Assembly: GCA_002376885.1 (NCBI GenBank)
Contig: DFOW01000005.1
Span: 1-60,771, forward strand
DNA from: Patescibacteria group bacterium UBA3531
GTDB taxonomy: Bacteria > Patescibacteriota > Minisyncoccia > Phycocordibacterales > UBA3531
DNA length: 60,771 nt
Direction: 5' to 3'
Shown in pieces: positions 10,682 to 36,240 of this stretch. Position 1 is the first letter of the stretch, and each line of letters opens with the position of its first letter. The position numbers were made by a program, and so were the translations under genes. The notes beneath the pieces were generated by a model, which worked only from the letters and a program-made list of their open reading frames with translations, was not told where the DNA came from and made no database searches.

Positions 10682-10755
10682 TGGTGCGGGTAGGGAGAAT
10701 CGAACTCCCGTCGCCTGATTGGAAGTCAGGCGTTTTACCACTAAACTATACCCGC
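10682..10755 (-). tRNA. tRNA-Trp (anticodon CCA), CCA encoded
   Basis: Cloverleaf by eye: acceptor GCGGGTA/TACCCGC, anticodon stem CCTGA/TCAGG with loop CTTCCAA, T arm GGGAG-TTCGATT-CTCCC. Confidence 0.9.
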
Positions 10756-11424
10756 TTATTTTGTGTACACCTCATTCATCCACGCTTCTATTTTCCGTGA
10801 AAAGTATATACCAAATTTTTTATTTCCTTCGCTCCTTACGGTAAGGTGTACTGTCCCATAAGGTAACTTTCCTCGTTTATATACCTTTTTCCCTGTTCTT
10901 TTGTCAATTTGCGTTTTATTGAACTGGGCCTTTGATAAGCTTGTGACCTTTGCCCAGTAATTAACACACGCTTCTATATCGCTATCCGGATACAAATAAA
11001 GTGTTATGGAAAAATTATTTTTTGAAAGTCCACACACTTCCTGGAACCAACGCAGTGCTAACTTGATAACGTCAGGATTTGAATTAACAATACGCACAAT
11101 CCCATGACTTTTTGTCCCCTCACCAATATAGAGCCCCAATCCTAACATAAAAATATCTCTTTTGTTAAGGCTCCCTATTTCCTTTTTTGCTTCACTTTGT
11201 GCTTTTCGTATGGAAGCACGCTTGATCTCATTTTTAACAGTGGCTGACCTAGCACGAGCTTTTCCAATCTTTACAACTGTCTCTTTATTTGGTGTATAGG
11301 GGATTTTTCTAAGCCAGTGACTAAGCGTACTTTTAGAAACACCTACTTCGTCAGCGATAAAACTGTACGAATACCCATTTTGGCGTAACTTTATTGCTCT
11401 TTCTTTTGCTGCTTGCTTACTCAC
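10756..11424 (-). CDS. HTH plus LAGLIDADG-like homing-endonuclease-like protein
   Basis: 222 aa. N-terminal HTH (YSFIADEVGVSKSTLSHWL). LGLGLYIGEGTKS resembles a single LAGLIDADG motif. The stop codon directly abuts the 5' end of tRNA-Trp. Confidence 0.5.
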   Translation of the reverse strand: MSKQAAKERAIKLRQNGYSYSFIADEVGVSKSTLSHWLRKIPYTPNKETVVKIGKARARSATVKNEIKRASIRKAQSEAKKEIGSLNKRDIFMLGLGLYIGEGTKSHGIVRIVNSNPDVIKLALRWFQEVCGLSKNNFSITLYLYPDSDIEACVNYWAKVTSLSKAQFNKTQIDKRTGKKVYKRGKLPYGTVHLTVRSEGNKKFGIYFSRKIEAWMNEVYTK

Positions 11425-11483
11425 ATCTACAGTATATCACATAATATACATATGTTCGTATTTTTATCATCGTCCAGATAACT

Positions 11484-11511
11484 AAAAACCCCGCAAAGTT
11501 GCGGGGTTTTT
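11484..11511. terminator. bidirectional intrinsic terminator
   Basis: AAAAACCCCGC-AAAGTT-GCGGGGTTTTT. Confidence 0.7.
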
Positions 11512-11527
11512 AGTTAGGAGTGTGATA

Positions 11528-11644
11528 CTACTCAGTAGCAGCTTCACCTTCTCCACCTTCAGCTGGTGCAGCTTCTCCTTCTGGAGTAGCTTCACCTTCA
11601 GTTGCTTCTGCACCTTCTGGTGCCATATCTTCTAGTACGATCAT
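11528..11644 (-). CDS. candidate 38-aa acidic micro-ORF (MIVLEDMAPEGAEATEGEATPEGEAAPAEGGEGEAATE)
   Basis: ATG-to-TAG frame with a periodic GAA/GGT-rich repeat. No clear RBS. Similar in style to the micro-ORF at 57905-57991. Confidence 0.25.
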   Translation of the reverse strand: MIVLEDMAPEGAEATEGEATPEGEAAPAEGGEGEAATE

Positions 11645-11714
11645 TGTAAATTCAATGTAAGTCGATTGATAAGTTACGACCGAGTAAACAAAAAGCCCTT
11701 TCAGGCTTAGAGGT

Positions 11715-11742
11715 ATTGTAGCCTATCAGGACTTTTTGTCAA
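11715..11742 (-). promoter_or_regulatory. strong sigma70-like promoter (TTGACA-N16-TACAAT) followed at once by a hairpin plus T-run
   Basis: Minus-strand TTGACA 11737-11742 and TACAAT 11715-11720. The hairpin AAGCC-N6-GGCTT (about 11689-11704) is followed by TTTGTTT. Confidence 0.5.
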
Positions 11743-11804
11743 ACCCGTCAAATAATTTTGTTTACAAAATTAGCTTTGCTATTTGACAGGTTCAATCAGT
11801 TTCT

Positions 11805-13124
11805 TTAACTATTTTGAATAGCGTTCAGTCCGTTTCCGTTTCTGTTTCGTTCTCGTTCTTCACGCAATCCCTTTAATTGTTCGTGCAAGGTTTGCACATA
11901 TACAAAGATAGCAACCAAAAGGACAATCAAAATGGTAAGGATAATCCACCCAAACACCGTGCTTGGGAAGAATCCTCCATTTGAGAGAATGAGTGCTCCT
12001 TGTCCGTTAGCGCGAGCATCGTCAACATCTGCCAAAGTGCCTGCGGTTGTGGTTGCGTTTTCATCTCCATTGTCTCCAAAACCAAAGAGTCGTGCCCAGA
12101 ACCCTCGAGTGTCCTCTTGTGCAGTTGTATCGTTAGAAGATTGAGAGGTGTCGTTTGTGTTTCCGCCTGTATCTGAACCAGAACCTTGATTATTTGAAGC
12201 TGTTCGTGACCCACTTGTTTGAGAAGGCGCGCTTCCTGTATTGTTTGTTCCTTGTGATGACTGATTAGTGTTTGACGTATTAGTGTTAAGAGCAACTGTT
12301 GGAACGCTAAGCGGTTGGTTGAACCCAGTCACTAGTCCCCCATCACTTGTAAATGCCAAGACAGAACCAACGGCTCGTCCACCTGGACCAAGAACTTCGG
12401 CTCGGTAGTAATAAATTGTCCCTGGTGTTAGACCAGTCAGTGTTTCTTGAAAACTAAGACCAAGGAACCCTGCTCCCAAGCCCTTAACTTGGGTTTGTTG
12501 CAAAATGTCAGGGGTGGTTCCCCATCTAAAGTATGCGCTAATGTTTGCGCTCGTATTGGTTTCTGCTTGTCCACGAATAATAACGGTATTGTCGTTAACA
12601 ATCTGCGGAACAAGGGTTACTGCTGTTGGCGCTGGGTATGAAGAGGTAGTGTCGATAATGGTACCAACGTTACTGATAAAGCTTCCGAGCGATTCAGAAA
12701 ACCCATCAATAATCCTAAATCGAATAGTGTCTCCGTATACATATTCTCCGTCAGATTCTTGCGCTACTGCTCGATAGTAATAAAAATCTTCTATATCAAG
12801 ATTAGACAAAAAATGAGAAAGGAAAATTTCATCGTCCCCTATCAAAATAGAGCTGGTTCGTTTACCAAGCGATGACGTCTCTCCCCATTCAAACCATGCG
12901 TTTCCAATGTTTGTTTCATCAGAAAGGTCTGCAATCATTTTAAGTTCTGCGCTCCCTTTATCTTCACCTGATCGATAAAATGATGGTGTAAACGTTACTA
13001 CGTCTCCAAATGGATCGTCGTCATGATCGGCAAGTGCCACTCCTGGCAAAAGGAGAGCAAGCACAAAAAGCCCCACTAAGAGGGTTTCTGCTACTTTTTT
13101 TGCTGTCTGCGCAAAAATATTCAT
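11805..13124 (-). CDS. surface protein with repeated Fn3-like modules, S/T/N/G-rich linker and C-terminal TM anchor
   Basis: Signal peptide from MNIFAQTAKKVAETLLVGLFVLALLLPGVALA (start moved to 13124). Repeated W..T...YYYRA modules. C-terminal TM WIILTILIVLLVAIFVYV. Confidence 0.7.
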   Translation of the reverse strand: MNIFAQTAKKVAETLLVGLFVLALLLPGVALADHDDDPFGDVVTFTPSFYRSGEDKGSAELKMIADLSDETNIGNAWFEWGETSSLGKRTSSILIGDDEIFLSHFLSNLDIEDFYYYRAVAQESDGEYVYGDTIRFRIIDGFSESLGSFISNVGTIIDTTSSYPAPTAVTLVPQIVNDNTVIIRGQAETNTSANISAYFRWGTTPDILQQTQVKGLGAGFLGLSFQETLTGLTPGTIYYYRAEVLGPGGRAVGSVLAFTSDGGLVTGFNQPLSVPTVALNTNTSNTNQSSQGTNNTGSAPSQTSGSRTASNNQGSGSDTGGNTNDTSQSSNDTTAQEDTRGFWARLFGFGDNGDENATTTAGTLADVDDARANGQGALILSNGGFFPSTVFGWIILTILIVLLVAIFVYVQTLHEQLKGLREERERNRNGNGLNAIQNS

Positions 13125-13195
13125 GGTTGGCATTATACAGTACTGACACTTGTTTGTCAATGCTTTCTCTTGATGCCTTTTTTAGTCGGGACGCC

Positions 13196-13268
13196 GGGAT
13201 TCGAACCCGGAATCGCTCGGTCCCAAACCGAGAATGTTAGCCGTTACACCACGTCCCGTCATCATGCT
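13196..13268 (-). tRNA. tRNA-Pro (anticodon TGG)
   Basis: acceptor CGGGACG/CGTCCCG; anticodon stem CTCGG/CCGAG with loop TTTGGGA; T arm CCGGG-TTCGAAT-CCCGG. Confidence 0.9.
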
Positions 13269-13304
13269 TATTAGCCACGCTATAGTAGCACAAAACTCAA
13301 TATT

Positions 13305-13697
13305 TTAAAGCAAAATGTCCTCTAAATGTTCCATCTCATCAACTTCTCCCTCTTTTAAATACACTGCGATTGCATCAACTTGGTAATCTTCGTCCTCTTT
13401 TCCCTCTTCTCTTAGGTAGGTTTGGATAATTCTTCGGAGGCGATCTTTTTTCTGCTTAGTAATATTAAAAAGTGGGTTGTAATCAAAATCCCCCTCTTTC
13501 TTGACAGAGATTGACTTCACCTCAACAAAATGGATCACTCCTTTTTTTGCAGCAATGATGTCAAGCTCTCCCCAGGGTTTTAAATAATTTCTTCCAAGAA
13601 CGGTAAACCCATTCTTCTCCAAGTGTTGTACCGCAATATCTTCCCCCTTGTCTCCTGTTTCTCTATTCTTACTCTTCATATCTTTCACGTGAAACAC
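13305..13697 (-). CDS. yraN: YraN family (UPF0102) endonuclease-like protein
   Basis: 130 aa; GDKGEDIAVQHLEKNGFTVLGRNY...GELDIIA...IHFVEVK pattern. Confidence 0.8.
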   Translation of the reverse strand: MFHVKDMKSKNRETGDKGEDIAVQHLEKNGFTVLGRNYLKPWGELDIIAAKKGVIHFVEVKSISVKKEGDFDYNPLFNITKQKKDRLRRIIQTYLREEGKEDEDYQVDAIAVYLKEGEVDEMEHLEDILL

Positions 13698-13923
13698 TTA
13701 AATCGTTTCTTTGGTAACATTACTGCTGTCTTTTTGGCTTCAAAGACCCTATCTTTAAAATGTCCTTATTTTAAGCCACTTTTCATATGAAACGGACATA
13801 ACGATAGTGTTTGTCTTTGACCTTTATACACATATCCCCAGTTTTATCCCCATTTCTTATTGGACTTTTCCACATAAGAATCCACATTCTGGGGACAAGT
13901 AATGCTCTTAAGGACATTTACTA

Positions 13924-14064
13924 GTGCGGGTAGGGACCTGTCTGCCGACAGGCAGGGAATCGGTCACAGATATTTTGCTCCGCCTGCCTGACGTCAGGCA
14001 GGCAAAATTCCGCGACCCCGCCTCGGTGCTCAGACCAATGGCACACCTCCGGCTTTCGATTCCC
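13924..14064 (-). other. GC-rich structured insert beginning with a duplicated, interrupted tRNA-Gly 3' end (integration-scar-like)
   Basis: GTGCGGGTAGGGA at 13924-13936 repeats 14115-14127. It is followed by a 20-nt hairpin CCTGTCTG-CCGA-CAGGCAGG and then GAATCG (the continuation of the tRNA T-loop). A perfect palindrome GCCTGCCTGAC/GTCAGGCAGGC lies at about 13982-14003. GGGAATCG (13955-13962) pairs with CGATTCCC (14057-14064). Confidence 0.45.
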
Positions 14065-14115
14065 AATACACCTTAAAATTATAGCCCAACACACGGTTGA
14101 GTCATAATTTTCATG

Positions 14116-14186
14116 TGCGGGTAGGGAGAATCGAACTCCCGACTCGTCCTTGGCAAGGACGTGTTATACCACTTAACCATACCCGC
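14116..14186 (-). tRNA. tRNA-Gly (anticodon GCC)
   Basis: Acceptor GCGGGTA/TACCCGC; anticodon stem CGTCC/GGACG with loop TTGCCAA. The T arm is identical to that of tRNA-Trp. Confidence 0.9.
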
Positions 14187-14199
14187 TGTGTGCTATATC

Positions 14200-14298
14200 G
14201 GGACTCGGCCACTCTCGCAGAATAGCTATTCTGCTCCATCGGCCCCCACTCGAGCCTTCGTGCTGCGCACGGCTTTGCAGGCTCTCGGTTCGAGTCCC
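14200..14298. ncRNA. candidate about 100-nt GC-rich structured RNA between tRNA-Gly and tRNA-Arg
   Basis: Closing stem GGGACTCG (14200-14207) with CGAGTCCC (14291-14298). Hairpins: GCAGAATA-GC-TATTCTGC 14217-14234, and GAGCCT...AGGCTC 14253-14284 enclosing CGTGC-TGC-GCACG. Contains a T-loop-like GGTTCGAGTCC but no cloverleaf. Confidence 0.35.
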
Positions 14299-14357
14299 CC
14301 TAAAAGCATTAAAATAATATTTCAAGGACACTTCTTGCCCTCGAAATTTATTTTAGG

Positions 14358-14429
14358 TGCTCCCGGAGGGACTCGAACCCCCAACGACGGTTCCGAAGAC
14401 CGTTGTGATATCCATTTCACCACGGGAGC
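14358..14429 (-). tRNA. tRNA-Arg (anticodon TCG)
   Basis: acceptor GCTCCCG/CGGGAGC; anticodon stem ACGGT/ACCGT with loop CTTCGGA; T arm GGGGG-TTCGAGT-CCCTC. Confidence 0.88.
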
Positions 14430-26582: not shown

Positions 26583-26622
26583 AAGCCCCTTAGTAGGAAA
26601 CGAACAGGGGCTTTGTCTTTTT
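26583..26622 (+). terminator. terminator of cassette C
   Basis: AAGCCCCT-N15-AGGGGCTT then TGTCTTTTT. Confidence 0.65.
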
Positions 26623-26670
26623 AAATCTCTCAAGAAACCACATTTGGGAGCATCTACTTATAAATCTCTC

Positions 26671-26796
26671 TTGGAGCAGGGTTTGAGAACCTGCCGGAGA
26701 AAATTTTGCTTGGCTCAGCCGTAGGCTGAAAAATTTTCGAGGATAAGCGAGCGCTCCGCAGGAGAGCGCGAAGCGGGTTCTCAAACCCTGCTCCAA
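26671..26796 (+). ncRNA. structured RNA motif, copy 1 (P1 plus three-way junction with conserved CTGCCGNAG / TGCTTGG / YCGAGGATAAG)
   Basis: P1 is 26671-26691 with 26776-26796 (21 bp). CTGCCGGAG 26691-26699; TGCTTGG 26707-26713. Hairpin TCAGCC-GTA-GGCTGA 26715-26729. TCGAGGATAAG 26737-26747. Hairpin GCGCTC-N7-GAGCGC 26751-26769. CTTGG pairs with TCGAG through G-U pairs only on the plus strand. Confidence 0.55.
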
Positions 26797-26848
26797 AAAA
26801 AATAAACCCTATTGAATTTCGCAAGCCACCACGATACACTAAAGGCAT

Positions 26849-27211
26849 ATGTCATTAGATTTAGAATTTTTTAAGGGGGAATTAGAAAAAGAACAAGCAA
26901 AGCTCGAGGAAGAGCTTAGAGCTATGGGTGCCAAACAAAATCCCAACAACCCCGATGATTGGGAAGCAGTACCTGATGACGTCTCTCAACAGACTGCCGA
27001 CAAAAACGAAATGGCAGATAGGCTCGAAGACTTTGAACAAGCACGCTCAACAGAAGTATCGCTTGAACTTCGACTCAACCAAGTTAAAAGTGCCCTCAAA
27101 AAAATAGACGATGGTACGTATGGCAAGTGCGAGGAAGGGGGCGAAGATATCCCAGAAGAACGCCTAAGAGCAAACCCTGCCGCAACCACCTGCATCGACC
27201 ACGCAAAGTAA
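26849..27211 (+). CDS. DksA/TraR-family-like protein with degenerate zinc finger
   Basis: 120 aa. Coiled-coil N-terminal part. The C-terminal YGKCEEGGEDIPEERLRANPAATTCIDH retains two of the four usual Cys. Confidence 0.65.
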   Translation: MSLDLEFFKGELEKEQAKLEEELRAMGAKQNPNNPDDWEAVPDDVSQQTADKNEMADRLEDFEQARSTEVSLELRLNQVKSALKKIDDGTYGKCEEGGEDIPEERLRANPAATTCIDHAK

Positions 27212-27217
27212 TCACAT

Positions 27218-27247
27218 AAAACCCCGCCTGGGGTTTTATTGTTTTTT
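27218..27247 (+). terminator. intrinsic terminator
   Basis: AAAACCCC-GCCT-GGGGTTTT then ATTGTTTTTT. Confidence 0.75.
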
Positions 27248-27265
27248 GGAATATAAAAGGGTAGG

Positions 27266-27826
27266 GTGGTAGCCAGACTGGCATGGCGCCAGAGGAGACA
27301 GGAATTGGAAACTCATTACCATTTGAGAAGCGGGAGTCCCCAGGATGGAATCCTCCTTGGTCCGGGCGCGATTCTTCAGGCGGGCGACAAGCTGGCGCAT
27401 CCCGACGGGTTCTGGGAACCGTGCATGACCCCAGGAGCTCTTCTTTGGGATAGGCCGAAAGAGGTTTGCTGGGTTCGCCCCGTCGACCTCCCTCGGCACC
27501 TGAAGGACCTCTTGGTCTTCATTGCCGAGCGGGGGCGCCTCCTGTACCGACGAGACGAGACGCTCTTCGAAGAAGGAACGCAAGGGAAGATCGACACACG
27601 CCCGTGCTGGAAGATGCTCCGCGGAGCACACGAGGTAGACCGAGCCGATGCAACGAGTGGTGGCATTCCCGGTATCGGGGCACTTGCCTTCGTCGATCCG
27701 CTCCTTGCCTACGGACTTCTCACTCCCGCAAGCGGGAGTGAAGTGCTCTTCTCTCCCAACGAGTACGGGACACGTGTTGCCATCAACCATCTCGCCGAAA
27801 GGTGGGCAGATGAGGTTGCGACATAG
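27266..27826 (+). CDS. hypothetical protein, GC-rich (cassette D); start codon uncertain
   Basis: The plus frame ends at TAG 27824-27826, followed by a plus-oriented terminator. A TTG near 27305 with GGAG upstream is an alternative start. The 233-aa minus-strand ORF is judged a shadow. Confidence 0.5.
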   Translation: MVARLAWRQRRQELETHYHLRSGSPQDGILLGPGAILQAGDKLAHPDGFWEPCMTPGALLWDRPKEVCWVRPVDLPRHLKDLLVFIAERGRLLYRRDETLFEEGTQGKIDTRPCWKMLRGAHEVDRADATSGGIPGIGALAFVDPLLAYGLLTPASGSEVLFSPNEYGTRVAINHLAERWADEVAT

Positions 27827-27837
27827 TCGCAAGACCA

Positions 27838-27876
27838 GGGGCCGTCCACAGCTGTGGACGGCCCCTTCTTCTTTTG
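27838..27876 (+). terminator. GC-rich terminator of cassette D
   Basis: GGGGCCGTCCAC-AGCT-GTGGACGGCCCC then TTCTTCTTTTG; a T-run follows only on the plus strand. Confidence 0.75.
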
Positions 27877-27891
27877 TGATACACTCTCCCC

Positions 27892-29439
27892 ATGGTTTCG
27901 CGCGTGTATTCTGCACAAACTGTTGGGATAGAACCACAACTCGTCACCGTCGAAGTCGACATGGGACGAGGCCTTCACTCCTTCTCTATTATTGGTCTTC
28001 CCGACCGCGCCATCGAAGAAGCAAAAGACAGAATTAATGCAGCTATAAAAAATTCTGGGTACAAACCTCCACAAAAAGGAAACAAACGAGTCGTTATTGC
28101 ACTCGCACCAGCGGACCTTAAAAAAGAGGGTCCGATTTTTGATTGTGCTATGGCGCTTGGCGCACTCAAAGCAGCAGGCGACATCCAGTTTAATGAAGAA
28201 GGAAAACTATTTTTGGGAGAACTCGCCTTAAATGGAGACCTTCGACCCATAAAGGGGGCGCTCCCCATTGCACGGTACGCAAAACTCCTTGGGTTTAAAG
28301 AACTCTATCTCCCAAAACAAAATGCACAGGAGGCAGCACTCATTGGCGGCATCACTATTTATGGGGTGAGTACCTTAAAAGAATTAATTGAGCACATTAA
28401 CACCGACAAAGACGCTGAACAAATAACACTTACCAAACAATCCCAAACAAAAATCAAAATTGGCGAGCCCACGCAAAGCTTTATCGACTTCTCTGACGTT
28501 AAAGGGCAAGAGACAGCAAAGCGCGGGTTGGAAATTGCAGCAGCAGGCGGACACAATGTGGGAATGTATGGGCCACCAGGAACTGGTAAAACGCTTTTGG
28601 CAAAAGCATTCTCTGGTATCTTGCCCGCTCTTACTTTAGACGAAGTGATTGAAGTAACCGGAATTCATTCTGCGGCTGGCGCACTTAAAAAAGATGGAGC
28701 AATAACCGACCCACCATTTAAATCTCCTCATCACACTGCAAGTTATGTTTCGCTAGTTGGAGGAGGAACCTATCCAAGACCAGGAGAAATTACGCTCGCA
28801 CATCGTGGAGTTTTGTTTTTAGATGAATTTCCTGAATTTGAAAAACGAGTTATTGATTCTCTCCGCCAACCTCTTGAAGATAAGATCGTAAACATAAGTC
28901 GTGCAAAAGATTCTGTCAGGTTCCCAGCAGATTTTATTTTACTTGCTGCTATGAACTTGTGCCCGTGCGGAAACACCGGCCTTACTAAAAAAGAATGCGT
29001 CTGTAATCCAGCAGCGCTTTTGCGTTACAAGCGAAAAATATCAGGGCCCATTATCGATAGAATTGATTTATGGTTGTCGGTACCTGAAATAGATATAGAA
29101 AAACTTTCGGATGACACAAAGGGGGAGCCATCTCATGCTGTCCGTTCCCGAATAGAGAGCGCCCGATTGCTTCAAAAGTCCCTTTTTAAAAAACATAACC
29201 TTTCACTTTCTGCTAATAGCCAAATCGGACCAAAAGAAATTAAAAAGGTGGCACCGCTCAATACAAAAGAATTAGGTCTTTTAAATGAAAGCGCTAAAAA
29301 ATTAGGGCTCTCTGCCAGAAGCTATCATAAAGTTATTAAAGTTGCTCAAACCATTGCCGCCCTTGATGGGAAAGAAAGGATCGAGACTCCACACCTTCTT
29401 GAAGCACTCCAATACCGACCCAAAAACTTGAGTTTGTAA
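27892..29439 (+). CDS. comM: YifB/ComM family Mg-chelatase-like AAA+ ATPase
   Basis: 515 aa; N-terminal Lon-protease-like domain; Walker A GPPGTGKT; Walker B VLFLDEFPEF. Confidence 0.9.
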   Translation: MVSRVYSAQTVGIEPQLVTVEVDMGRGLHSFSIIGLPDRAIEEAKDRINAAIKNSGYKPPQKGNKRVVIALAPADLKKEGPIFDCAMALGALKAAGDIQFNEEGKLFLGELALNGDLRPIKGALPIARYAKLLGFKELYLPKQNAQEAALIGGITIYGVSTLKELIEHINTDKDAEQITLTKQSQTKIKIGEPTQSFIDFSDVKGQETAKRGLEIAAAGGHNVGMYGPPGTGKTLLAKAFSGILPALTLDEVIEVTGIHSAAGALKKDGAITDPPFKSPHHTASYVSLVGGGTYPRPGEITLAHRGVLFLDEFPEFEKRVIDSLRQPLEDKIVNISRAKDSVRFPADFILLAAMNLCPCGNTGLTKKECVCNPAALLRYKRKISGPIIDRIDLWLSVPEIDIEKLSDDTKGEPSHAVRSRIESARLLQKSLFKKHNLSLSANSQIGPKEIKKVAPLNTKELGLLNESAKKLGLSARSYHKVIKVAQTIAALDGKERIETPHLLEALQYRPKNLSL

Positions 29440-29442
29440 GCG

Positions 29443-29471
29443 TTGACAAAAATATAAAAATAGTGTATATT
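29443..29471 (+). promoter_or_regulatory. consensus promoter (TTGACA-N17-TATATT) of GC-rich cassette E
   Basis: TTGACA 29443-29448; TATATT 29466-29471; starts 4 nt after the comM stop. Confidence 0.55.
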
Positions 29472-29573
29472 TACGAATGGATAATCGGGTTGAGAATGTC
29501 TCTTCCTGGTTAATTAACCCCACGACTGCAAACAGGCTGTATGAGCCTAGACAGTCACTAGAAGGGTTGTTCC

Positions 29574-30866
29574 ATGACAAGCGAACTGACGACACTGAAT
29601 CTTCCTGCCAACCGACCGAGTCCCCAGGAGCTCTTCGACTACCCCCAGTACACGATCCCCGGGATCACCACTTGGGAGCAGGTCGTGCTCCTCGGGAGCA
29701 AGAACATCGGGGCGATGATCAGCCGGTGTCGCTCCCGCGAGAAGGAGCTCACCAGCAGGATCCAGCGGCTCGTCGAGAAGCAGAAGCTTCTCGAAGGCAA
29801 GTCCGGTGACGACATCAAGGAGATGGCCAAGGGTTTCGAGAATCCCACCATCACCGAGACGGGTGTCCCGGACGGTAGCTGGAACGACGACCTGGAGCCG
29901 ACCGACGGGGCGAGTAAGGCCCGCGAACGCGGGGCGACCACCTTCAACATCTGCGGGTGGTGCACGCACGCCGGTGGAGGCACCTGTCGCTACGGCTACT
30001 ACATCAAGACCAGCTGTGGCCTGATGCACGGCGACTCGCCCGAGACGGCCTTCAACACACCTTGTCTCCTCCAGGAGATGGGGAACGACCAGATCACGGC
30101 GATCGTCGAACGCACCAAGAACCTGATCATGGACACCAAGGAACTCCGCGAGAAGGTGCGGACCGGAATCCGGATCCTGCAGCAGCTCAAGGAGAACGAG
30201 GGGTCCACGGAGAAGCCCTACCTGATGTCCCTCCGTCCGCATGACCACTTCAACGTCGGCGACGACGTGATGGTGCGCATCGGCGGCCACGACAACGTGA
30301 TCGTGGAGGGCGAGTGGGCTCCGGCGATGGTGGTGTTCGGCTACCGTCATCACGATGGCTGCGTGAGCACCCAGACGCTGTTCCCGATCCACAACGGTGA
30401 AAATCTCGAGGGTCGGGGATGGGGCTTCGGGATGAGTCGTCCGGAATGCCTCCTCAGGAGCGAGTTCAGCTACCTGCGGGACGCCTTCGAGAACGACCTC
30501 TGGTTCCTGCGGCTTTGGCTGCAGGCGCTCGACGAGAAGCTGACGGGCTTCAACCCCGTAAGCTTCCGGAAGGCACTCCAGGACGGTGCGATCGCCGACC
30601 CGCCCGAGGACTGGGATCCCCCCGTCGACGAGATCGCTGTTCGAAGCGTCGAGGATGCGCAGTGCGTACTCCAGATGCTCAACGTCGACCTCTTCGACAC
30701 GGAGGAGAAGGTTCGTGGCTGGGTCAACATGCAGCTGCAGTTCGTTCACCCCGACAAGCACGCCAACGGCAACAAGGGCGCCCAGTCCTATGCCGAGCGT
30801 CAGACGAAGGCGGTGTATGCGGCGCGTGATCTCCTGATCCAGCGCCTGCGGGATCGTCAGAGCTAG
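29574..30866 (+). CDS. 430-aa protein with C-terminal J domain (HPD motif) and central Cys-rich region, GC-rich (cassette E)
   Basis: J-domain-like C-terminus: DAQCVLQMLNVDL..EEKVRGWVNMQLQFVHPDKH...AYAARDLL, with HPD at 30747-30755. Cys cluster CGWCTHAGGGTCRYGYYIKTSCG. The 442-aa antisense ORF is a shadow. Confidence 0.75.
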   Translation: MTSELTTLNLPANRPSPQELFDYPQYTIPGITTWEQVVLLGSKNIGAMISRCRSREKELTSRIQRLVEKQKLLEGKSGDDIKEMAKGFENPTITETGVPDGSWNDDLEPTDGASKARERGATTFNICGWCTHAGGGTCRYGYYIKTSCGLMHGDSPETAFNTPCLLQEMGNDQITAIVERTKNLIMDTKELREKVRTGIRILQQLKENEGSTEKPYLMSLRPHDHFNVGDDVMVRIGGHDNVIVEGEWAPAMVVFGYRHHDGCVSTQTLFPIHNGENLEGRGWGFGMSRPECLLRSEFSYLRDAFENDLWFLRLWLQALDEKLTGFNPVSFRKALQDGAIADPPEDWDPPVDEIAVRSVEDAQCVLQMLNVDLFDTEEKVRGWVNMQLQFVHPDKHANGNKGAQSYAERQTKAVYAARDLLIQRLRDRQS

Positions 30867-30884
30867 GAGGCGCAAGCCTCAATC

Positions 30885-30930
30885 GGCCCCGGCCACTAAC
30901 TTCGGTTAGTGCGTCCGGGGCCATTTTGTT
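30885..30930 (+). terminator. GC-rich terminator of cassette E
   Basis: GGCCCCGG...CCGGGGCC enclosing CACTAAC-TTCG-GTTAGTG, then ATTTTGTT. Confidence 0.7.
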
Positions 30931-30972
30931 CCTATTCTGTAACTTTTTTTAATTAATCTCGTTATATACAAC

Positions 30973-31039
30973 GAAGGGCAGATAGTCTCATAGACGAGAC
31001 CTGATGAGCTCACAAGAAAACGAGCGAAATCTGTTTTTC
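30973..31039 (+). ncRNA. type III hammerhead self-cleaving ribozyme (complete catalytic core)
   Basis: Stem III: 30973-30983 with 31029-39. Cleavage triplet AUA, with the cut predicted after 30984. Stem I: GTCTC-ATAGAC-GAGAC, 30985-31000. CTGATGA 31001-07. Stem II: GCTC-N10-GAGC, 31008-25. GAA plus A15.1, 31026-29. Confidence 0.8.
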
Positions 31040-31088
31040 AATGTAAGCCTCAACCCTAGTTAGTAGTTTGCCTTACTAAACAGGGTCA

Positions 31089-31119
31089 ACACAAAACCCC
31101 CATATGGGGGTTTTGTGTT
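31089..31119. terminator. bidirectional terminator (serves the M23 peptidase gene on the minus strand)
   Basis: ACACAAAACCCCC-ATA-GGGGGTTTTGTGT. Confidence 0.75.
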
Positions 31120-31181
31120 CGCCTGAGATGTCTCCTTACTTTTATTATGAAAAGTTAAAATGGGTTTACCCGTTCAGTATT

Positions 31182-32267
31182 TTAGAAAGGGTTTTTTGCT
31201 CCGCGCACTTCAAAGTGAACATGGGGCCCTGTTGAGCGTCCGGTGTTCCCAACGTATCCAATAACTTGTCCTTGAACCACGCTTTGCCCAGCATACACAA
31301 TGTTACTTGAGTTGTGCGAGTATACCGTCTGTGTTCCGTTAGGGTGTGCAATAACAATGTAATTTCCGTACCCTCCATTCCAGCCTGTTCGTGAAATAAT
31401 CACATCCCCACTTGCCGCCGCTAAGATAGGTGTTCCTGTTGGGGTAGCCAAGTCAACAGCATTGTATCCGTGAAGCCCTTGTGTTCGTTTGTATCCAGTA
31501 ACGGGAGCACTAAAGTATCCACTAATTGCTGGACCTCCTGCTCCTCTTACAATAGCGCCTGTTGCGGTAGAGGTATAACTACTTTGAATTTTTCCATCGG
31601 GAACAATAATACTGTCGCCAACAGCCAAAACATGACCGTCTTGTATTCCATTAAATGAAATAATTTCTTCTGTCTTTACGCCATATTTCTTAGCGATACT
31701 TGCGAGCGTGTCTCCACTTTTTACGGTGTGCTCAATTCCGCTTACTGGCAAAATTACAAGCGTTTGTCCTTCATGAATCACACCACCTCGTCCAATATCA
31801 TTTGCCCAAATAATAGTGTCGGTTGTTACTCCAAATAGTTTTGCAATTTGCGAAAGGGAGTCACCAGAACGAACCACATACACACTAATTTGTTCTGGCC
31901 GTGGGGCAATTTCGGTATTACCCCTGGAACCAAGTGGTCCATTGTCGGCCACAAGTGCTTGCCCGTCAGCAATCGTTACGTCCCCACCTCCTTTAGCTGG
32001 GTTGGGGTCTGGGTTAAGGGCCGCACGCAAAAGCGCTACGTTTTGAGAGTTGATATCGTAGGTAAGATCATTATCTACTCCAAATAAACTCCCCAAAAAA
32101 GAAACAATCCCGGCATGAGCAGGGAGAGCAAAGGATCCAAGGATAATAAGGGCAACCACAAGGGTAGTGGCCTTTTTAAATGAAAGGTTCTTTAAAGTTC
32201 GTATAATCGCCTGAAGCCATGTACCGGAAGGTTCAGGGTCTTGTAGATTCGATGTAATAAGCCTCAA
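31182..32267 (-). CDS. LysM-LysM-M23 family peptidoglycan endopeptidase
   Basis: 361 aa; TM anchor; two LysM repeats (YVVRSGDSLSQIAKLFGV, HTVKSGDTLASIAKKYGV); M23 motifs (GLHGYNAVD, GPHVHFEV). Confidence 0.88.
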   Translation of the reverse strand: MRLITSNLQDPEPSGTWLQAIIRTLKNLSFKKATTLVVALIILGSFALPAHAGIVSFLGSLFGVDNDLTYDINSQNVALLRAALNPDPNPAKGGGDVTIADGQALVADNGPLGSRGNTEIAPRPEQISVYVVRSGDSLSQIAKLFGVTTDTIIWANDIGRGGVIHEGQTLVILPVSGIEHTVKSGDTLASIAKKYGVKTEEIISFNGIQDGHVLAVGDSIIVPDGKIQSSYTSTATGAIVRGAGGPAISGYFSAPVTGYKRTQGLHGYNAVDLATPTGTPILAAASGDVIISRTGWNGGYGNYIVIAHPNGTQTVYSHNSSNIVYAGQSVVQGQVIGYVGNTGRSTGPHVHFEVRGAKNPF

Positions 32268-32406
32268 TATTATGTGAGCAATTGAGTATAAGTTGCAAAA
32301 AAAGCCTTATTTCAGGCCATATTTGCTGTGACCGTAGTAATTACTCACCCACCATTTTACCCCTAGGGAAGGAAAAAGCAATGATTTTGTGGATAAGAAA
32401 ATACTC

Positions 32407-32436
32407 TTGACAAAAGAGTGATTATTGTGCTATAGT
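32407..32436 (+). promoter_or_regulatory. promoter (TTGACA-N18-TATAGT) of the GC-rich pilin cassette
   Basis: TTGACA 32407-32412; TATAGT 32431-32436; a perfect DnaA-box 9-mer TGTGGATAA lies at 32388-32396 just upstream. Confidence 0.5.
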
Positions 32437-32495
32437 TCCTCCAGTTTCTGGGAGAAATCCCACCACAGAACCTTCACACCAAGGAGATCGATACC

Positions 32496-32897
32496 ATGCG
32501 GAACCACCGCAACGGCTTCACCCTGATCGAGCTCATGATCGTCGTCGCCATCATCGGCATCTTGGCGGCCATCGCCATCCCGAACTTCCTGCATTTCCAG
32601 ATCAAGCAGCAGATGAACGTGGAGTTCCAGGAGGTCGCCACGGCCCTCGAGCTGTCGGACGCCGGGGACCCCGTCCCCTCGCTGTGCACCGGCACCTGGC
32701 GCAACGAGAAGGGCAACCGCTTCGACTGCTACCTCAAGAGCTTCGAGGATGGCGGTCACGTGGTGACCATCCGCTTCTACTACCAGGACGACCCGGACCC
32801 CAGCCATGCGCTGACCTGGGCGATCAACGAAAACGGCGAGGTGGATCTCCCGACCTACGAGTCCCTGCGTCACCCACACAGGCAGACGAGCTCCTAG
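32496..32897 (+). CDS. type IV pilin / pseudopilin with canonical class III signal peptide, GC-rich (cassette F)
   Basis: 133 aa; MRNHRNG|FTLIELMIVVAIIGILAAIAIPNF (G-1, F+1, E+5); two Cys in the C-terminal half; AAGGAG RBS. Confidence 0.85.
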   Translation: MRNHRNGFTLIELMIVVAIIGILAAIAIPNFLHFQIKQQMNVEFQEVATALELSDAGDPVPSLCTGTWRNEKGNRFDCYLKSFEDGGHVVTIRFYYQDDPDPSHALTWAINENGEVDLPTYESLRHPHRQTSS

Positions 32898-32920
32898 GCA
32901 GCCGTCCTTCGGGACGTCGA

Positions 32921-32960
32921 GAGCCTTGACAGCACATCACTGTCGGGGCTCTTTCTTTTT
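32921..32960 (+). terminator. terminator of the pilin gene
   Basis: GAGCCTTGACAG-N7-CTGTCGGGGCTC (two G-U pairs) then TTTCTTTTT. Confidence 0.7.
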
Positions 32961-33004
32961 ATTTATTTTGAACGTAAAGTGATAGAAGAAACACGGAGGG
33001 TCTC

Positions 33005-33169
33005 ATGAAATTGTTACGCACACTAGGTGCTGTCGCAGCTCTCTTGTTCGTCGGGTTCCTCGCTTGGAGGGCATTCACCGGAGAAGGTGAGCCCGGATCG
33101 CTCCTTCTGATCGGAGCAGGAATCGCAGGGCTCTCGCTCTTGCGAACCAGGCACCCGGTGAGCTACTAG
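33005..33169 (+). CDS. 54-aa protein: signal/TM helix plus PEP-CTERM-like tail, GC-rich (cassette F)
   Basis: MKLLRTLGAVAALLFVGFLAWRAFTGEGEPGSLLLIGAGIAGLSLLRTRHPVSY; GGAGGG RBS. The tail (EP-GSLLLIGAGIAGLSLL-RTR) resembles a PEP-CTERM sorting signal. Not in the ORF track because it is under 60 aa. Confidence 0.45.
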   Translation: MKLLRTLGAVAALLFVGFLAWRAFTGEGEPGSLLLIGAGIAGLSLLRTRHPVSY

Positions 33170-33176
33170 GGACTCT

Positions 33177-33207
33177 GCCCCGGCGCATGCGCCGGGGCTT
33201 CCTTTTT
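33177..33207 (+). terminator. GC-rich terminator
   Basis: GCCCCGGCGC-AT-GCGCCGGGGC then TTCCTTTTT. Confidence 0.75.
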
Positions 33208-33269
33208 ACCAAAATTTTTTTCTCCCAAAAATAATACTTGGGATCTGGAAACTTTTTAAAATTTGTCCC

Positions 33270-33392
33270 GAGACAGGGCTTGAAGTACTGCCGCAGGCGA
33301 AACATGCTTGGTTCTGCGTGAACAGAATGTGAGCCGAGGATAAGGAAACCCTATCGCTGGAATAGGGTTTCCGGTGCTTCAAGCCCCGTCTC
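33270..33392 (+). ncRNA. structured RNA motif, copy 2 (same architecture as 26671-26796)
   Basis: P1 is 33270-33285 with 33377-33392 (one A-C mismatch). CTGCCGCAG 33288-33296; TGCTTGG 33305-33311. Hairpin TTCTG-N6-CAGAA 33312-33327. CCGAGGATAAG 33334-33344. Hairpin GAAACCCTA-N9-TAGGGTTTC 33345-33371. Confidence 0.55.
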
Positions 33393-33417
33393 AAAACCCC
33401 GTGCTACAATACACCCC

Positions 33418-35355
33418 ATGAATTACCTCGAAGGGTTAAACAAAGGACAAAAAGAGGCCGTACTCCACAAAGACGGTCCGCTTTTAATTTTTGCAGGGGC
33501 GGGTGCCGGCAAAACAAAAACCGTTACTCACAGAATCCTTCATCTTATTCAAGAAGGAGTTGCCCCAACAAGTATTTTGGCTGTTACGTTTACCAACAAG
33601 GCGGCGGGCGAGATGCGCGACCGTGTCATGTCACTTATTGAAAAAGATAATGTTTTAAGTTTCCCCAGCTCTAACCCCTGGGTAGTGCGTCAGCATTTAC
33701 CCGAGATCTCAACATTCCATTCTCTGGGAGTAAAAATTCTAAAAGAGCATGCAAAAGATATTGGTAAAACAAAAAACTTTACCATTCTAGATAAAGACGA
33801 CTCATTGCGAGCAATTAAACGTATCTTAAAACGACTTGACCTAGACCCTAAACAATATGAACCTCGAAAAATCTTAAATAGAATCTCTCGCACAAAAGGA
33901 GATGGAGTTGGATTTAAAGAGTTTGCAGAAGGTACTCATGATTTTTTTGGAAACATTGTGGTAACCGTATGGGAAAAGTATGAAAAAGAACTTAGGGAAA
34001 CAAATGCTCTTGATTTTGACGACCTTTTAGTAAAAACACTTCACTTACTTGAACAAAACAAAGAAATTTTAGAAAAGTATCAAGAACGATGGAGGTACAT
34101 TCATGTGGATGAGTACCAAGACACTAACCGTGTTCAATATGAATTCACTAAACTCTTAGCAAACAAATACAAAAATATTTGTGTGGTGGGGGACAATGAT
34201 CAATCTATTTACAGTTGGCGGGGAGCAGACTACTCAAACATTCTTAATTTTGAAAAGGATTACCCAAAGGCGAAAATTGTTCTTTTAGAAGAAAATTACC
34301 GCTCAACTAAAACCATTATTAGTGCCGCAAATGAGGTCATTAAAAAGAATCGTGAACGAATTGAAAAGAATTTATTTACCAGCCGTGACGATGGAGAAAG
34401 AATTTTGGTGTATGCAGCACCCGACGAGAAGAAAGAGGCGGAATTTATCGTGGGGAAGACCAAAGAATTAATTGATAAGGGGACCAATCCAAAAGATATT
34501 GCCGTTCTGTACCGAGCAAACTTTCAGTCACGAATTTTAGAAGAAAAGTTTTTGCATTCTGGTATCCCGTACCAAGTCCTTGGTGTGCGTTTTTTTGAAC
34601 GAAAAGAAATTAAAAACATGCTCGCATATTTGCGTGCCGCTATTAATCCCGACGACCTTCACAGTATTGAAAGAATCATTAATGTACCAGCACGTGGTAT
34701 TGGGAAGGTTACGCTTGCAAAAGTGTTTGGCGGACAAAGAGAGTCTCTCTCACCAAGAATGAAAGAAAAGGTAGACACTTTTTTTGAAATCTTAAAATCA
34801 ATTAACAATAAAAGTCATGTACTTGCACCATCGGAGCTTCTAAAATATGTTGCACGAGTTTCAGGAATTGAGGGCGCCCTTAAAAAAGGGAGTGAAGACG
34901 ATTTAGAACGACTCGAAAACATTAACGAGCTGGTAACCCTTGCAACCAAATACGACACACTCCCTGCTGAAGAAGGACTTGATCTCTTTTTAGAAGATGC
35001 GTCTCTTATGACAAGTGACCAAGATCAAATAGAAGACGCTAAAGGAGTAAAGTTAATGACCGTACACGCTGCAAAAGGTCTTGAGTTTGATTATGTTTTT
35101 GTAACAGGACTTGAAGAAGATCTTTTCCCTCATACAAAGTTGGGGAGTGAAGAAAAAGATGAAGAAGAAGAGCGCAGACTTTTTTATGTTGCTGTCACTC
35201 GCGCAAAAGAAAAACTCTTTTTAACGTATGGACATAAACGAATGCTCTATGGGCAAGAAACAATGAATCTTCCGTCGCAATTTATTTACGATATAGATGA
35301 AAGCCTGATCGAAAACCAAGAGGGTGCCTACGAGACCGTGATTAGTATAGAGTAG
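33418..35355 (+). CDS. pcrA: UvrD/PcrA-type superfamily 1 DNA helicase (compact)
   Basis: 645 aa; Walker A AGAGAGKTKT; DEYQDTN; VGDNDQSIYSWRGA; TVHAAKGLEFD. Confidence 0.9.
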   Translation: MNYLEGLNKGQKEAVLHKDGPLLIFAGAGAGKTKTVTHRILHLIQEGVAPTSILAVTFTNKAAGEMRDRVMSLIEKDNVLSFPSSNPWVVRQHLPEISTFHSLGVKILKEHAKDIGKTKNFTILDKDDSLRAIKRILKRLDLDPKQYEPRKILNRISRTKGDGVGFKEFAEGTHDFFGNIVVTVWEKYEKELRETNALDFDDLLVKTLHLLEQNKEILEKYQERWRYIHVDEYQDTNRVQYEFTKLLANKYKNICVVGDNDQSIYSWRGADYSNILNFEKDYPKAKIVLLEENYRSTKTIISAANEVIKKNRERIEKNLFTSRDDGERILVYAAPDEKKEAEFIVGKTKELIDKGTNPKDIAVLYRANFQSRILEEKFLHSGIPYQVLGVRFFERKEIKNMLAYLRAAINPDDLHSIERIINVPARGIGKVTLAKVFGGQRESLSPRMKEKVDTFFEILKSINNKSHVLAPSELLKYVARVSGIEGALKKGSEDDLERLENINELVTLATKYDTLPAEEGLDLFLEDASLMTSDQDQIEDAKGVKLMTVHAAKGLEFDYVFVTGLEEDLFPHTKLGSEEKDEEEERRLFYVAVTRAKEKLFLTYGHKRMLYGQETMNLPSQFIYDIDESLIENQEGAYETVISIE

Positions 35356-35400
35356 GGGTATGCATGTTTACCCGCCCAACTTTCTTAATGCCATAAGAAA

Positions 35401-36240
35401 ATGAGAAAAAAAGAGTCAGGGAAAAAATTACCACAAAATAAAAAATCCATTGATGGTCAGAAAGTTTTGCGGGCAAAACGATCACTGGGGCAAAACTTTT
35501 TAATATCTAAAGCTGTTGCGCAGTCTATTGCAAATGCGGGAGAACTTACCAATAACGATACCGTACTTGAAGTTGGGCCCGGAAAAGGAATTCTTACCAG
35601 AGAGCTCTTAGTGCAAGCAGGAACGGTTATTGCCTTTGAAAAAGACGATGAACTTTATGCAAAACTCAAAGAAATTTTTGAAAAAGAAATTGACTCAAAA
35701 AAACTTATTTTAATTCACGACGATATTTTTAACTTCGAAAATCATCGTGATAGTTTTGGTGAATCTTTGAAGACATTAAAAATTGTTGCCAATATTCCGT
35801 ACAACATTACCGGAAAATTGTTGCCGTTCTTTTTTGGTCTCGCTCCAATGCCATCAAAAATTGTTCTTTTGGTTCAAAAAGAAGTTGCCGATAGAATTGT
35901 TGCGCGCGATGGAAAAGAAAGTATTTTATCGATCAGTGTAAAAGCGGTTGGGACACCACGGTCTCTTAAAAAAGTCTCTAAAAAACTTTTTTCACCCTCT
36001 CCCAAAGTAGATTCTGCTGTTCTTTTAATCAGCGACATTTCTAAAAAAAATTTTGAAAAAGTAGACGAGCAAACCTTTTTTAAGCTTGTAAAACAAGGGT
36101 TTTCTGAAAAACGAAAGATGCTCAAAAACAACCTCGACACCGATAGAGACAAATTATTTGCCTGTGGTATAAAGGAGTCGGCACGAGCCGAAGAGCTTAC
36201 CGTAAACGACTGGCTCTGCCTTACAAAACATGAATTATAA
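35401..36240 (+). CDS. rsmA: 16S rRNA (adenine1518/1519-N6)-dimethyltransferase
   Basis: 279 aa; SLGQNFL, EVGPGKGILT, ANIPYNIT motifs. Confidence 0.9.
   Translation: MRKKESGKKLPQNKKSIDGQKVLRAKRSLGQNFLISKAVAQSIANAGELTNNDTVLEVGPGKGILTRELLVQAGTVIAFEKDDELYAKLKEIFEKEIDSKKLILIHDDIFNFENHRDSFGESLKTLKIVANIPYNITGKLLPFFFGLAPMPSKIVLLVQKEVADRIVARDGKESILSISVKAVGTPRSLKKVSKKLFSPSPKVDSAVLLISDISKKNFEKVDEQTFFKLVKQGFSEKRKMLKNNLDTDRDKLFACGIKESARAEELTVNDWLCLTKHEL

Follow-up and report, generated by a model that had tools for sequence, protein, structure and literature searches.

Two stretches of the window, by which we mean the whole 60.8-kb stretch of DNA analyzed here, are copies of one RNA architecture. They lie at positions 26671-26796 (copy 1) and 33270-33392 (copy 2), both on the plus strand, and together with their homologues on other contigs they show an element that is dispersed and strand-specific and in which a complex fold is under selection. 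It represents a real family of structured RNA of candidate-phyla-radiation bacteria, one that is undescribed to the extent covered by Rfam 15 and the literature searched.

Copies of the Element in the Window

The blocks CTGCCG(G/C)AG, TGCTTGG, and CGAGGATAAG are common to the two copies and occur in identical order. Composite patterns match the window exactly twice, with 0.00 matches expected from shuffles, and the two matches are found where an earlier note, made from the sequence alone, had placed two stretches of one architecture. Two covariance models, R1, built from six cleanly aligned copies, and R2, rebuilt from all matches, were run over the whole window without filters, and these two are the only complete copies in it. 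The MFE is -69.6 kcal/mol for copy 1 and -66.7 kcal/mol for copy 2 (z scores in Table 1), and the plus strand folds more stably than the minus (-66.7 and -57.4 kcal/mol). The arms of the closing helix P1, which had been described as completely different in the two copies, turn out to be related (GAGCAGGGTTTGAGAAC vs GAGACAGGGCTTGAAGTAC): 15 of the 26 outer P1 columns are identical, and one change between the two is compensated, T-to-C being offset by A-to-G on the opposite arm (T-A to C-G).

A possible third copy had also been mentioned. No complete one was found, and what the window does hold is a truncated 5' arm with its box at 26619-26656. The box, TT(T/A)TAAATCTCTC, is present there as a direct repeat. 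The arm is near-identical to the P1 arms of two copies of subtype D on other contigs (L058:19590-19691 and L030:4426-4539), and no 3' arm that matches it is present in the window. Another candidate third copy, at 15571, was a chance match within a coding gene. The P1 arms were considered as guides as well; they have no further occurrences in the window, and the idea of a target was dropped.

Table 1. Element copies, their parts, and adjacent promoter-like boxes in the window
Feature	Position	Strand	Basis
Truncated third copy: box TTTTAAATCTCTC and solo D-subtype 5' P1 arm AAGAAACCACATTTGGGAGCATC	26619-26656	+
-10-like box TTATAAATCTCTC directly before copy 1 P1, putative promoter	26658-26670	+	sequence
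Copy 1, subtype A, complete element, 126 nt	26671-26796	+	R2 121.4 bits; MFE z = -7.5 vs shuffled sequence
Copy 1 P1 5' arm, 24 nt, pairs with 26773-26796	26671-26694	+	sequence; P1 covariation
Copy 1 J1/2 CGGAG (family consensus C-CGSAG)	26695-26699	+	nearly invariant in alignments
Copy 1 P2 5' strand AAAAUUU, pairs with 26731-26737	26700-26706	+	P2 covariation
Copy 1 bulge UGCUUGG, 7 nt	26707-26713	+	alignment
Copy 1 hairpin P2a	26714-26730	+	covariation
Copy 1 P2 3' strand AAAUUUU	26731-26737	+	covariation
Copy 1 J2/3 CGAGGAUAAGCGA	26738-26750	+	alignment
Copy 1 hairpin P3, 6 bp, loop CGCAGGA of 7 nt (consensus CGYNGGA)	26751-26769	+	covariation, loop conservation
Copy 1 J3/1 GAA (subtype A)	26770-26772	+	alignment
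Copy 1 P1 3' arm, then eight-A run (26795-26804 = AAAAAAAAAT)	26773-26796	+	sequence
-10-like box TACACT, 8 nt before ATG at 26849, putative dksA promoter, outside element	26835-26840	+
-10-like hexamer TAAAAT, 7 nt before copy 2 P1, putative promoter	33257-33262	+	read from sequence
Copy 2, subtype B, complete element, 123 nt	33270-33392	+	R2 87.4 bits; MFE z = -8.3 vs shuffled sequence
Copy 2 P1	33270-33290/33372-33392	+
Copy 2 J1/2	33291-33296	+
Copy 2 P2 with tandem G-A	33297-33304/33328-33334	+
Copy 2 bulge	33305-33311	+
Copy 2 P2a	33312-33327	+
Copy 2 J2/3	33335-33344	+
Copy 2 P3	33345-33354/33362-33371, loop 33355-33361	+
Extended -10-like box TGCTACAAT, 7 nt before ATG at 33418, putative uvrD promoter, outside element	33402-33410	+

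Consensus Fold, Covariation, and Strand

The consensus fold was derived from alignment A8, which comprises 14 distinct copies from four lineages. In this alignment, which was fitted to the model and so favors the structure (the margin is nevertheless wide, and independent folds of single sequences had shown the helices beforehand), 93.5% of the cells form standard pairs in helices P1, P2, P2a, and P3, and both-sided changes are seen at 33 of the 37 helix pairs (P1, 14 of 17; P2, 7 of 7; P2a, 6 of 7; P3, 6 of 6). The covariation score is 0.857, as against 0.25 for column shuffles and 0.09-0.19 when the partners are slid by 1-3 columns, and the picture was unchanged on an earlier set of 12 copies. 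The covariation of all four helices agrees with the view, taken from two copies in the earlier note, that conserved single strands combined with stems of changing sequence that keep pairing indicate a functional fold.

P1 closes the element with at least 20 bp in every copy and with about 30 bp or more in some (up to 33). On top of it sits a three-way junction, one arm of which consists of P2, the 7-nt bulge UGCUUGG, and P2a, and the other of P3. The strands that join the helices, CCGSAG, YGAGGAUAAG, and GAA, are nearly invariant. The same is true of the U-G wobble that P1 has at its inner end (CUGC/GCGG). P2 has 7-8 bp and in some copies includes a tandem G-A step. Its 5' strand is the stretch of 7-8 nt that had been regarded as a spacer; it pairs with the 7 nt before YGAGG, and all seven pairs covary, as in GCGCAGU/ACUGCGC, GCAAUAC/GUAUUGC, and GUGUUUU/AAAACAC. 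The bulge lies on the 5' strand and is the same in 12 of the 14 copies, the exceptions being UGCUCGG (L063:6037-6150, equivalent to the minus-strand copy of L030) and GGCAUGG (a weak copy of subtype C). P2a is variable, and it is missing from one D-type copy and thus dispensable. J2/3 reads YGAGGAUA(A)G followed by NRA; within it, the 11 copies that the pattern scans detected all have GAGGAUAAG, and the D-type copies carry GAGGAUAGAG. In P3, 100% of the cells pair, and the 7-nt loop has the consensus CGYNGGA. J3/1 is GAA in subtype A, and a longer P3 takes its place in subtype B. In all, some 35 nearly invariant nucleotides sit in the junctions, bulge, and loop, and the stems around them covary freely. 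Two GGA motifs about 20 nt apart are exposed, GAGGA in J2/3 and NGGA in the P3 loop.

The plus strand, to which the earlier note had assigned the fold, is indeed the folded strand. Over all helices, G-U pairs number 33 and A-C pairs 6, and model R2 gives copy 1 121.4 bits on the plus strand and 17.2 on the minus, and copy 2 87.4 and 14.3. The G-U excess and the gap in score point to the same strand, which is also the one that folds more stably.

Another pairing that had been proposed, between CTTGG and YCGAG, is not part of this consensus. The two are pairable in 98% of the cells, but both-sided changes are seen in none of the pairs (one side only varies), so that the counts speak neither for nor against it. 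TGCTTGG falls in the 7-nt bulge, and the pairing clashes with the covarying P2. Since YCGAG directly follows the 3' strand of P2, leaving no linker to cross 7 bp, the geometry of such a pseudoknot suggests that this helix could form only as an alternative conformer, not alongside P2. The GA/GAA step around P3 was also considered as a K-turn or K-junction, an idea rejected on account of an extra A and the absence of the step from subtype B.

Homologues, Distribution, and the Possibility of a Mobile Repeat

Homologues were sought by an exact-pattern scan of 185,579 species genomes, by a separate scan of metagenome contigs, and with the covariance models. The genome scan gave two true copies, both in Candidatus Nomurabacteria RIFCSPHIGHO2_02_FULL_38_15, and eight chance matches inside genes; the metagenome scan gave seven new copies besides duplicates of known ones. 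R1 added a diverged copy, L030:4426-4539, and R2 added two in flanking DNA of the same genome, L058:19590-19691 (52 bits) and a weak C-type copy, L058:10484-10606, which at 21 bits was accepted only because J1/2, GAGGA, and the P3 loop CGCUGGA were recognized by eye. The check that the earlier note had proposed, building such models and searching with them, thus yielded further homologues that covary, and a plain MITE-like repeat is not borne out.

The window matches PAMJ01000007.1 in the marine (Tara Oceans) assembly GCA_002708165.1 (Parcubacteria/Paceibacterota), to which L017 (PAMJ01000005.1) also belongs. L018 and L030 were put in the same population by shared samples, by NCBI proteins MAZ40626 and MAZ41105, and by similar tetranucleotide composition, L012 only by composition and the common Tara metagenome assembly. 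On these assignments, the population has at least nine complete copies (111-144 nt, of subtypes A, B, C, and D) and one fragment in the approximately 133 kb sampled, with a density of roughly one copy per 15-30 kb. Apart from the copies already located, there are copies at L060:13400-13510 and L063:5873-5984 and on L012. Nomurabacteria-type contigs (at least three copies) and the unplaced contigs L020 and L028 are further carriers. Within the species, both window copies are fixed in three independent assemblies, and the model finds both again in L054.

So many copies of a non-coding unit that falls in the size range of 100-300 bp are what is seen with MITEs, and the element could be a selfish, non-autonomous mobile repeat of the MITE, REP, or PATE type, its arms and hairpins being recognized as DNA, possibly as single-stranded DNA of the top strand, by an enzyme encoded elsewhere. 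Any RNA would then be incidental or just a hairpin at the 3' end of a transcript. We regard this explanation as the main rival of the small RNA proposed below, although as rather unlikely. A good deal speaks for it. Besides the copy number, there is the truncated solo arm at 26619-26656, and on L030 the diverged copy and a known one stand back to back, 52 nt apart. Copies lie in random orientation to their neighbors in short spacers at gene ends. The six relatives that share the gene order of the window (see below) have none, so that orthologous sites differ in presence and absence, as is seen with MITEs. Among copy 1, the plus-strand copy of L030, and the L012 copy, high identity breaks off sharply some 11 bp into P1, much as it does where a terminal inverted repeat ends, and the outer arms are wholly different and still complementary. 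The inner 11 bp or so of P1 are common within a subtype; across the family, however, the identity of P1 columns to those of the window copies is only 8-58%, and they covary instead. A marine and a groundwater lineage have cores of 74-78% identity. G-T wobbles are tolerated in single-stranded DNA hairpins too. Finally, the Breaker laboratory has classed motifs with many copies and inconsistent orientation as candidates for mobile or repeat elements (PMC11109978).

Against such a repeat stands the distribution of conservation. The arms vary and the unpaired junction nucleotides are conserved, which is the opposite of a transposase-recognized inverted repeat, and the four covarying helices include two internal hairpins for which a DNA repeat has no need. 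No transposase or integrase gene adjoins the element at any of the 14 loci, and collections of viral contigs, phages, and plasmids contained nothing similar to it. Nor is there a visible target-site duplication, in that no direct repeat flanks either window copy, where the insertion boundaries are inexact and the empty sites of relatives too diverged to define them. Of the earlier claim that the element is a fold rather than a simple repeat, one part therefore stands, as covariation rules out a plain repeat, and the other does not, as the many copies, patchiness, truncated copy, and random orientation are repeat-like. The two sets of results mean that a functional RNA and a repeat are not mutually exclusive readings.

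A further conceivable reading is that bacteria of the candidate phyla radiation carry here a new kind of element based on RNA, selfish or catalytic. It would be a self-cleaving ribozyme of a new class or else a repeat that spreads via the conserved three-way-junction fold of its own transcript or single strand. This would explain why unpaired junction nucleotides rather than terminal repeats are conserved between marine and groundwater lineages while copies come and go at orthologous sites, and yet we hold it to be quite doubtful.

In its core, copy 1 has 74-78% identity with the Nomurabacteria copies but only 53% with copy 2 of its own genome, which suggests that the subtypes are old or that the element moves between lineages. 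For the origin of the outer arms, two proposals were dropped: a genome-specific outer P1 maintained by concerted evolution, when L017 proved to be of the same assembly (GCA_002708165.1) as the window, and insertion into a pre-existing terminator hairpin, for which the A and T runs are on the wrong side, whichever strand is considered.

Neighboring Genes

The gene that follows is for a DksA/TraR zinc-finger protein in copy 1 and for a UvrD/PcrA helicase in copy 2. The earlier note implied a link to dksA, and a cis-acting leader or riboswitch for the downstream gene might be read from the fact that both copies are on the same strand as that gene, 52 nt before dksA and 25 nt before uvrD, and from the aptamer-like look of a three-way junction with conserved joining strands. 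This reading is largely refuted, and its chance of being right is very small indeed. The putative promoter boxes of the two genes lie downstream of the element (Table 1), the dksA box marking the limit of any influence that the element might have, and they are kept in relatives that are element-free: the arrangement TACACT-N8-ATG recurs in L032, and the box TGCTACAAT is identical in L032 and L038. (Neither box was called by a two-hexamer promoter scan.) The order dksA-comM-lysM/M23-uvrD-ksgA is kept in six other Paceibacteria, whose UvrD proteins are 58-75% identical. None of the six has an element at the corresponding positions before dksA and uvrD, or anywhere within +-10 kb, and in the relative with the 75% identical UvrD the dksA spacer is just 44 nt. 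A platform for a terminator or for sequestering a ribosome-binding site is also missing. In nine of the 14 copies the next gene is convergent, its stop codon being 2-30 nt from the 3' end of the element, and the five co-directional genes that follow the others are unrelated (for a DksA-like protein, UvrD, a protein with an N-terminus that, by eye only, resembles Fe/Mn superoxide dismutase, and two unknown proteins). Given the boxes between element and ATG, the empty syntenic sites, and the convergent neighbors, a leader role for dksA or uvrD is rejected. No other gene or small ORF is consistently adjacent either; six flanking and five other nearby small ORFs are without mutual similarity.

The location at gene ends may instead suggest intergenic punctuation, the long hairpin serving as a transcription stop, an RNase III site, or a 3'-end stabilizer, as in REP, ERIC, or Correia sequences. 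The nine convergent stop codons, so close to the base of P1, leave no room for another terminator; on L060 the element occupies the entire 140-nt spacer between two convergent genes; and an L058 copy, flanked by the RNase H and comEC genes of the opposite strand, would be read within the message of these two genes. A role of this kind is nevertheless improbable. On neither strand does a U-tract come after a hairpin, the genes upstream of copies 1 and 2 have terminator hairpins of their own ahead of the element, and a stop or stabilizer needs no conserved junction, bulge, or loop and no strand-specific G-U bias.

Ends of the Putative Transcript

Candidate promoters are found at the 5' end. The box TTATAAATCTCTC of copy 1 also precedes the fragment, and the similar TTTAAACTCTCTCC precedes the L018 copy, so that TAAA(T)CTCTC stands directly before P1 in all three. 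The two-hexamer scan did not call the boxes before P1 of copies 1 and 2. AT-rich spacers yield -10-like boxes by chance.

At the other end, an A-run comes directly after P1 in all copies of the window population. No U-tract follows P1: an A-run or mixed sequence does so on the plus strand, and on the minus strand the U-run precedes the hairpin. This counts against a free-standing small RNA, in that no 3' end is marked. No terminator-like site is called at the element, which thus does not qualify as an intrinsic terminator.

Comparison with Known RNA Families and Repeats

The earlier note could not place the motif in an RNA family, and the searches gave the same result. With Rfam 15 (4227 models) at gathering thresholds, the whole window has four tRNAs only, and at permissive cutoffs (E <= 10 for the two window copies and E <= 5 for four more) there was no real family match; the long P1 hairpin gave a spurious match to a miRNA precursor model, at 34 bits against a threshold of 90. 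Literature searches on the conserved strings and on RNA motifs of these phyla returned nothing relevant. The element resembles the orphan motifs of Weinberg and Breaker in Rfam in being defined by covariation and conserved nucleotides only. It is like their candidates for mobile or repeat elements in its many copies per genome, its inconsistent orientation to genes, and the lack of an assigned function, but most of those sit with transposase, integrase, or nuclease genes, with which the element is not associated.

Among classical repeats, Correia elements of Neisseria, ERIC/IRU of enterobacteria, RUP, and REP/BIME are similar in length (100-150 nt), inverted-repeat ends, the long hairpin of the transcript, short spacers at gene ends, high copy number, and patchy presence. 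The two-turn hairpin, moreover, is of the type cut by RNase III in Correia elements. However, these repeats have conserved terminal repeats with a simple imperfect palindrome inside, whereas in the element the arms vary freely, and the interior is a three-way junction that is not palindromic, in a fold whose four helices covary and whose unpaired nucleotides are conserved. The element is, in addition, common to distant lineages. As to other mobile structures, a retron would have the inverted repeats, but no reverse transcriptase gene is present in the annotated loci. The ends of P1 do not fit the R''/R' boxes of integron attC sites (RYYYAAC ... GTTRRRY), and the neighbors are core housekeeping genes in conserved synteny instead of gene cassettes arrayed in one orientation.

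Three groups of structured RNA invite comparison. Y RNAs, the partners of Ro/Rsr, are about 100-130 nt long, hold their 5' and 3' ends in a long stem below a structured head, and can be multicopy; in contrast to the element, they have a Ro-binding bulged stem helix as their conserved part and, in bacteria, a tRNA-like module. The Rfam models of Y RNA do not match, and no rsr gene was seen. The likeness to 5S rRNA is one of topology only (about 120 nt, a closing helix, and a three-way junction with one arm interrupted by an internal loop or bulge and one hairpin arm). There is no sequence similarity and no 5S match at E <= 10 or E <= 5, and the element, unlike 5S rRNA, has many copies that differ in their stems and are located outside rRNA operons.

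The third group is that of the hammerhead and twister-sister ribozymes, which likewise have three helices around a highly conserved junction and are dispersed, multicopy, independent of gene context, and patchy. The element might accordingly be a new class of small self-cleaving ribozyme, in which the junctions, bulge, and loop would form a putative active site and P1 would hold the ends. About 35 nearly invariant nucleotides framed by covarying stems would suit a catalytic core, bacterial hammerhead and twister ribozymes are as scattered as the element is, and in subtype A only, the purine-A step before P3 and the GAA after it could form tandem sheared G-A pairs like those beside hammerhead stem II. 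We nonetheless give this proposal little credence. No ribozyme family of Rfam scores even at the permissive E-values, the hammerhead core (CUGANGA...GAAA...UH) is absent, its place being taken by CCGSAG, YGAGGAUAAGNRA, and GAA, and no hammerhead model matches. Subtype B is without the GA/GAA step. A P1 of 20-33 bp, furthermore, is far longer than ribozymes need. When candidate motifs like this one are put to the test, most fail to cleave.

A Proposed Free-Standing Small RNA

We tentatively favor, as the most likely reading, that each copy is a free-standing unit, spreading like a repeat, whose product is a small RNA of about 110-145 nt, strand-specific and with extensive structure; we infer every step of its mechanism. 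Each copy would be transcribed under a -10-like box of its own, 6-10 nt upstream of P1. The two turns of P1 would protect the ends of the RNA and would be a natural substrate for trimming by RNase III, an enzyme specific for double-stranded RNA. The junction, bulge, and loop may fold into one recognition surface, which may include the two exposed GGA motifs, for a trans-acting partner, most likely a protein. New copies would arise by duplication or transfer, and the family would thereby turn over like a repeat. Several GGA motifs exposed in loops, together with a CsrA-family protein in the genome, would be expected of a protein sponge of the CsrB/Rsm type, and the element has two such motifs. 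A search of approximately 1 Mb of sequence, which covers only a fraction of the genome and so is uninformative for whole genomes, gave no gene for CsrA, Hfq, or RNase III.

As a point against this reading, the copy number, patchiness, and truncated copy fit a functional gene family and a selfish repeat equally well. The greater closeness of the core of copy 1 to the Nomurabacteria copies than to copy 2 could also mean horizontal spread.

Significance

The genomes of Parcubacteria and other bacteria of the candidate phyla radiation are tiny, at about 1 Mb or less, and hardly any of their DNA is non-coding. We know of almost nothing on their regulatory or catalytic RNAs. Each copy of the element costs about 125 nt, and roughly one is kept per 15-30 kb; between distant lineages, about 35 unpaired nucleotides stay nearly invariant and four helices covary. 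The element is therefore unlikely to be neutral. Many copies and a patchy distribution are an unusual combination with unpaired nucleotides so deeply conserved. If the element is a small RNA with a protein partner, it offers a way into some unknown process of symbionts that are uncultivated; as a ribozyme, or as a mobile element that depends on structure, it would represent a new class. The case of dksA illustrates that closeness to a gene can mislead where -10-like boxes sit a few bases before the start codon. Boxes in such positions suggest that the messages of these genes may be leaderless.

Arrangement of copies in the Tara population

On one contig (L030) of the marine Tara population to which the window belongs, a subtype A and a subtype D copy of the element lie back to back, separated by an AT-rich spacer of 52 nt within which the promoters of both copies, if present, would have to fit. 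A diverged C-type copy, whose score of 21 bits is that of plain hairpins in unrelated loci, fills the RNase H-comEC spacer. Because it lies there on the strand opposite to both genes, it would be read as antisense inside the RNase H/comEC message. In every copy of this population, the 3' arm of P1, the helix that pairs the element's two ends, is immediately followed by 4-8 A; this run is absent from copies of other lineages. On either strand it lies on the wrong side of P1 for a terminator U-tract.

Upstream of copy 1 is a truncated element, made up of a box (TTTTAAATCTCTC) and, after it, a 5' P1 arm that stands alone (AAGAAACCACATTTGGGAGCATC). The window has no 3' arm matching this solo arm, which is nearly the same as the arms of D-type copies elsewhere in the population. 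The box recurs at 26658-26670, ahead of copy 1.

Genes next to the element

The genes following the two copies have -10-like boxes, TACACT for dksA and TGCTACAAT for uvrD, just 7-8 nt 5' of the ATG, and this layout is retained in relatives that lack the element; the two messages are therefore probably leaderless. The order dksA-like, comM, LysM/M23 peptidase, uvrD, ksgA, DUF192 and a PrgI/TraC/TraG-like secretion cluster is conserved in seven Paceibacteria. One relative without the element, L068, has an ORF that weakly matches Y1 (IS200-like) transposase.

Several copies have genes for DNA repair or competence as neighbours (uvrD, recJ, rnhA/comEC), and recA and ssb are near. This closeness may be due to chance, the genomes being so small.

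A GC-rich hairpin repeat (CCCCTC...GGAGAGGGG) stands ahead of every copy in Nomurabacteria-type contigs, so what is repeated in that lineage may extend beyond the RNA motif. In one of these contigs (L004), two such repeats precede the copy in tandem.

Coordinates of features in the window and in other contigs (L handles)
Feature	Location	Strand
A and D copies, back to back	L030:4426-4703 (= L063:5873-6150)	opposite
Diverged C-type copy	L058:10484-10606 (= L017:4262-4384)	
A-run after P1	window 26795-26804; equivalent position in L012, L017, L018, L030, L058	
Truncated element	window 26619-26656	
Box-to-ATG, uvrD	window 33402-33418	
Box-to-ATG, dksA	window 26835-26851	
Box-to-ATG, relatives	L032:7530-7548, L038:2137-2153	
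Conserved gene order	window 26849-36240; also L032, L038, L066-L069	
ORF with weak Y1 match, adjoining ksgA	L068:12721-13413	
GC-rich hairpin repeat	L004:7680-7790, L006:5075-5135, L023:4370-4420	
Four tRNA genes	window 10685-14429 (10685-10755, 13186-13258, 14116-14186, 14358-14429)	-
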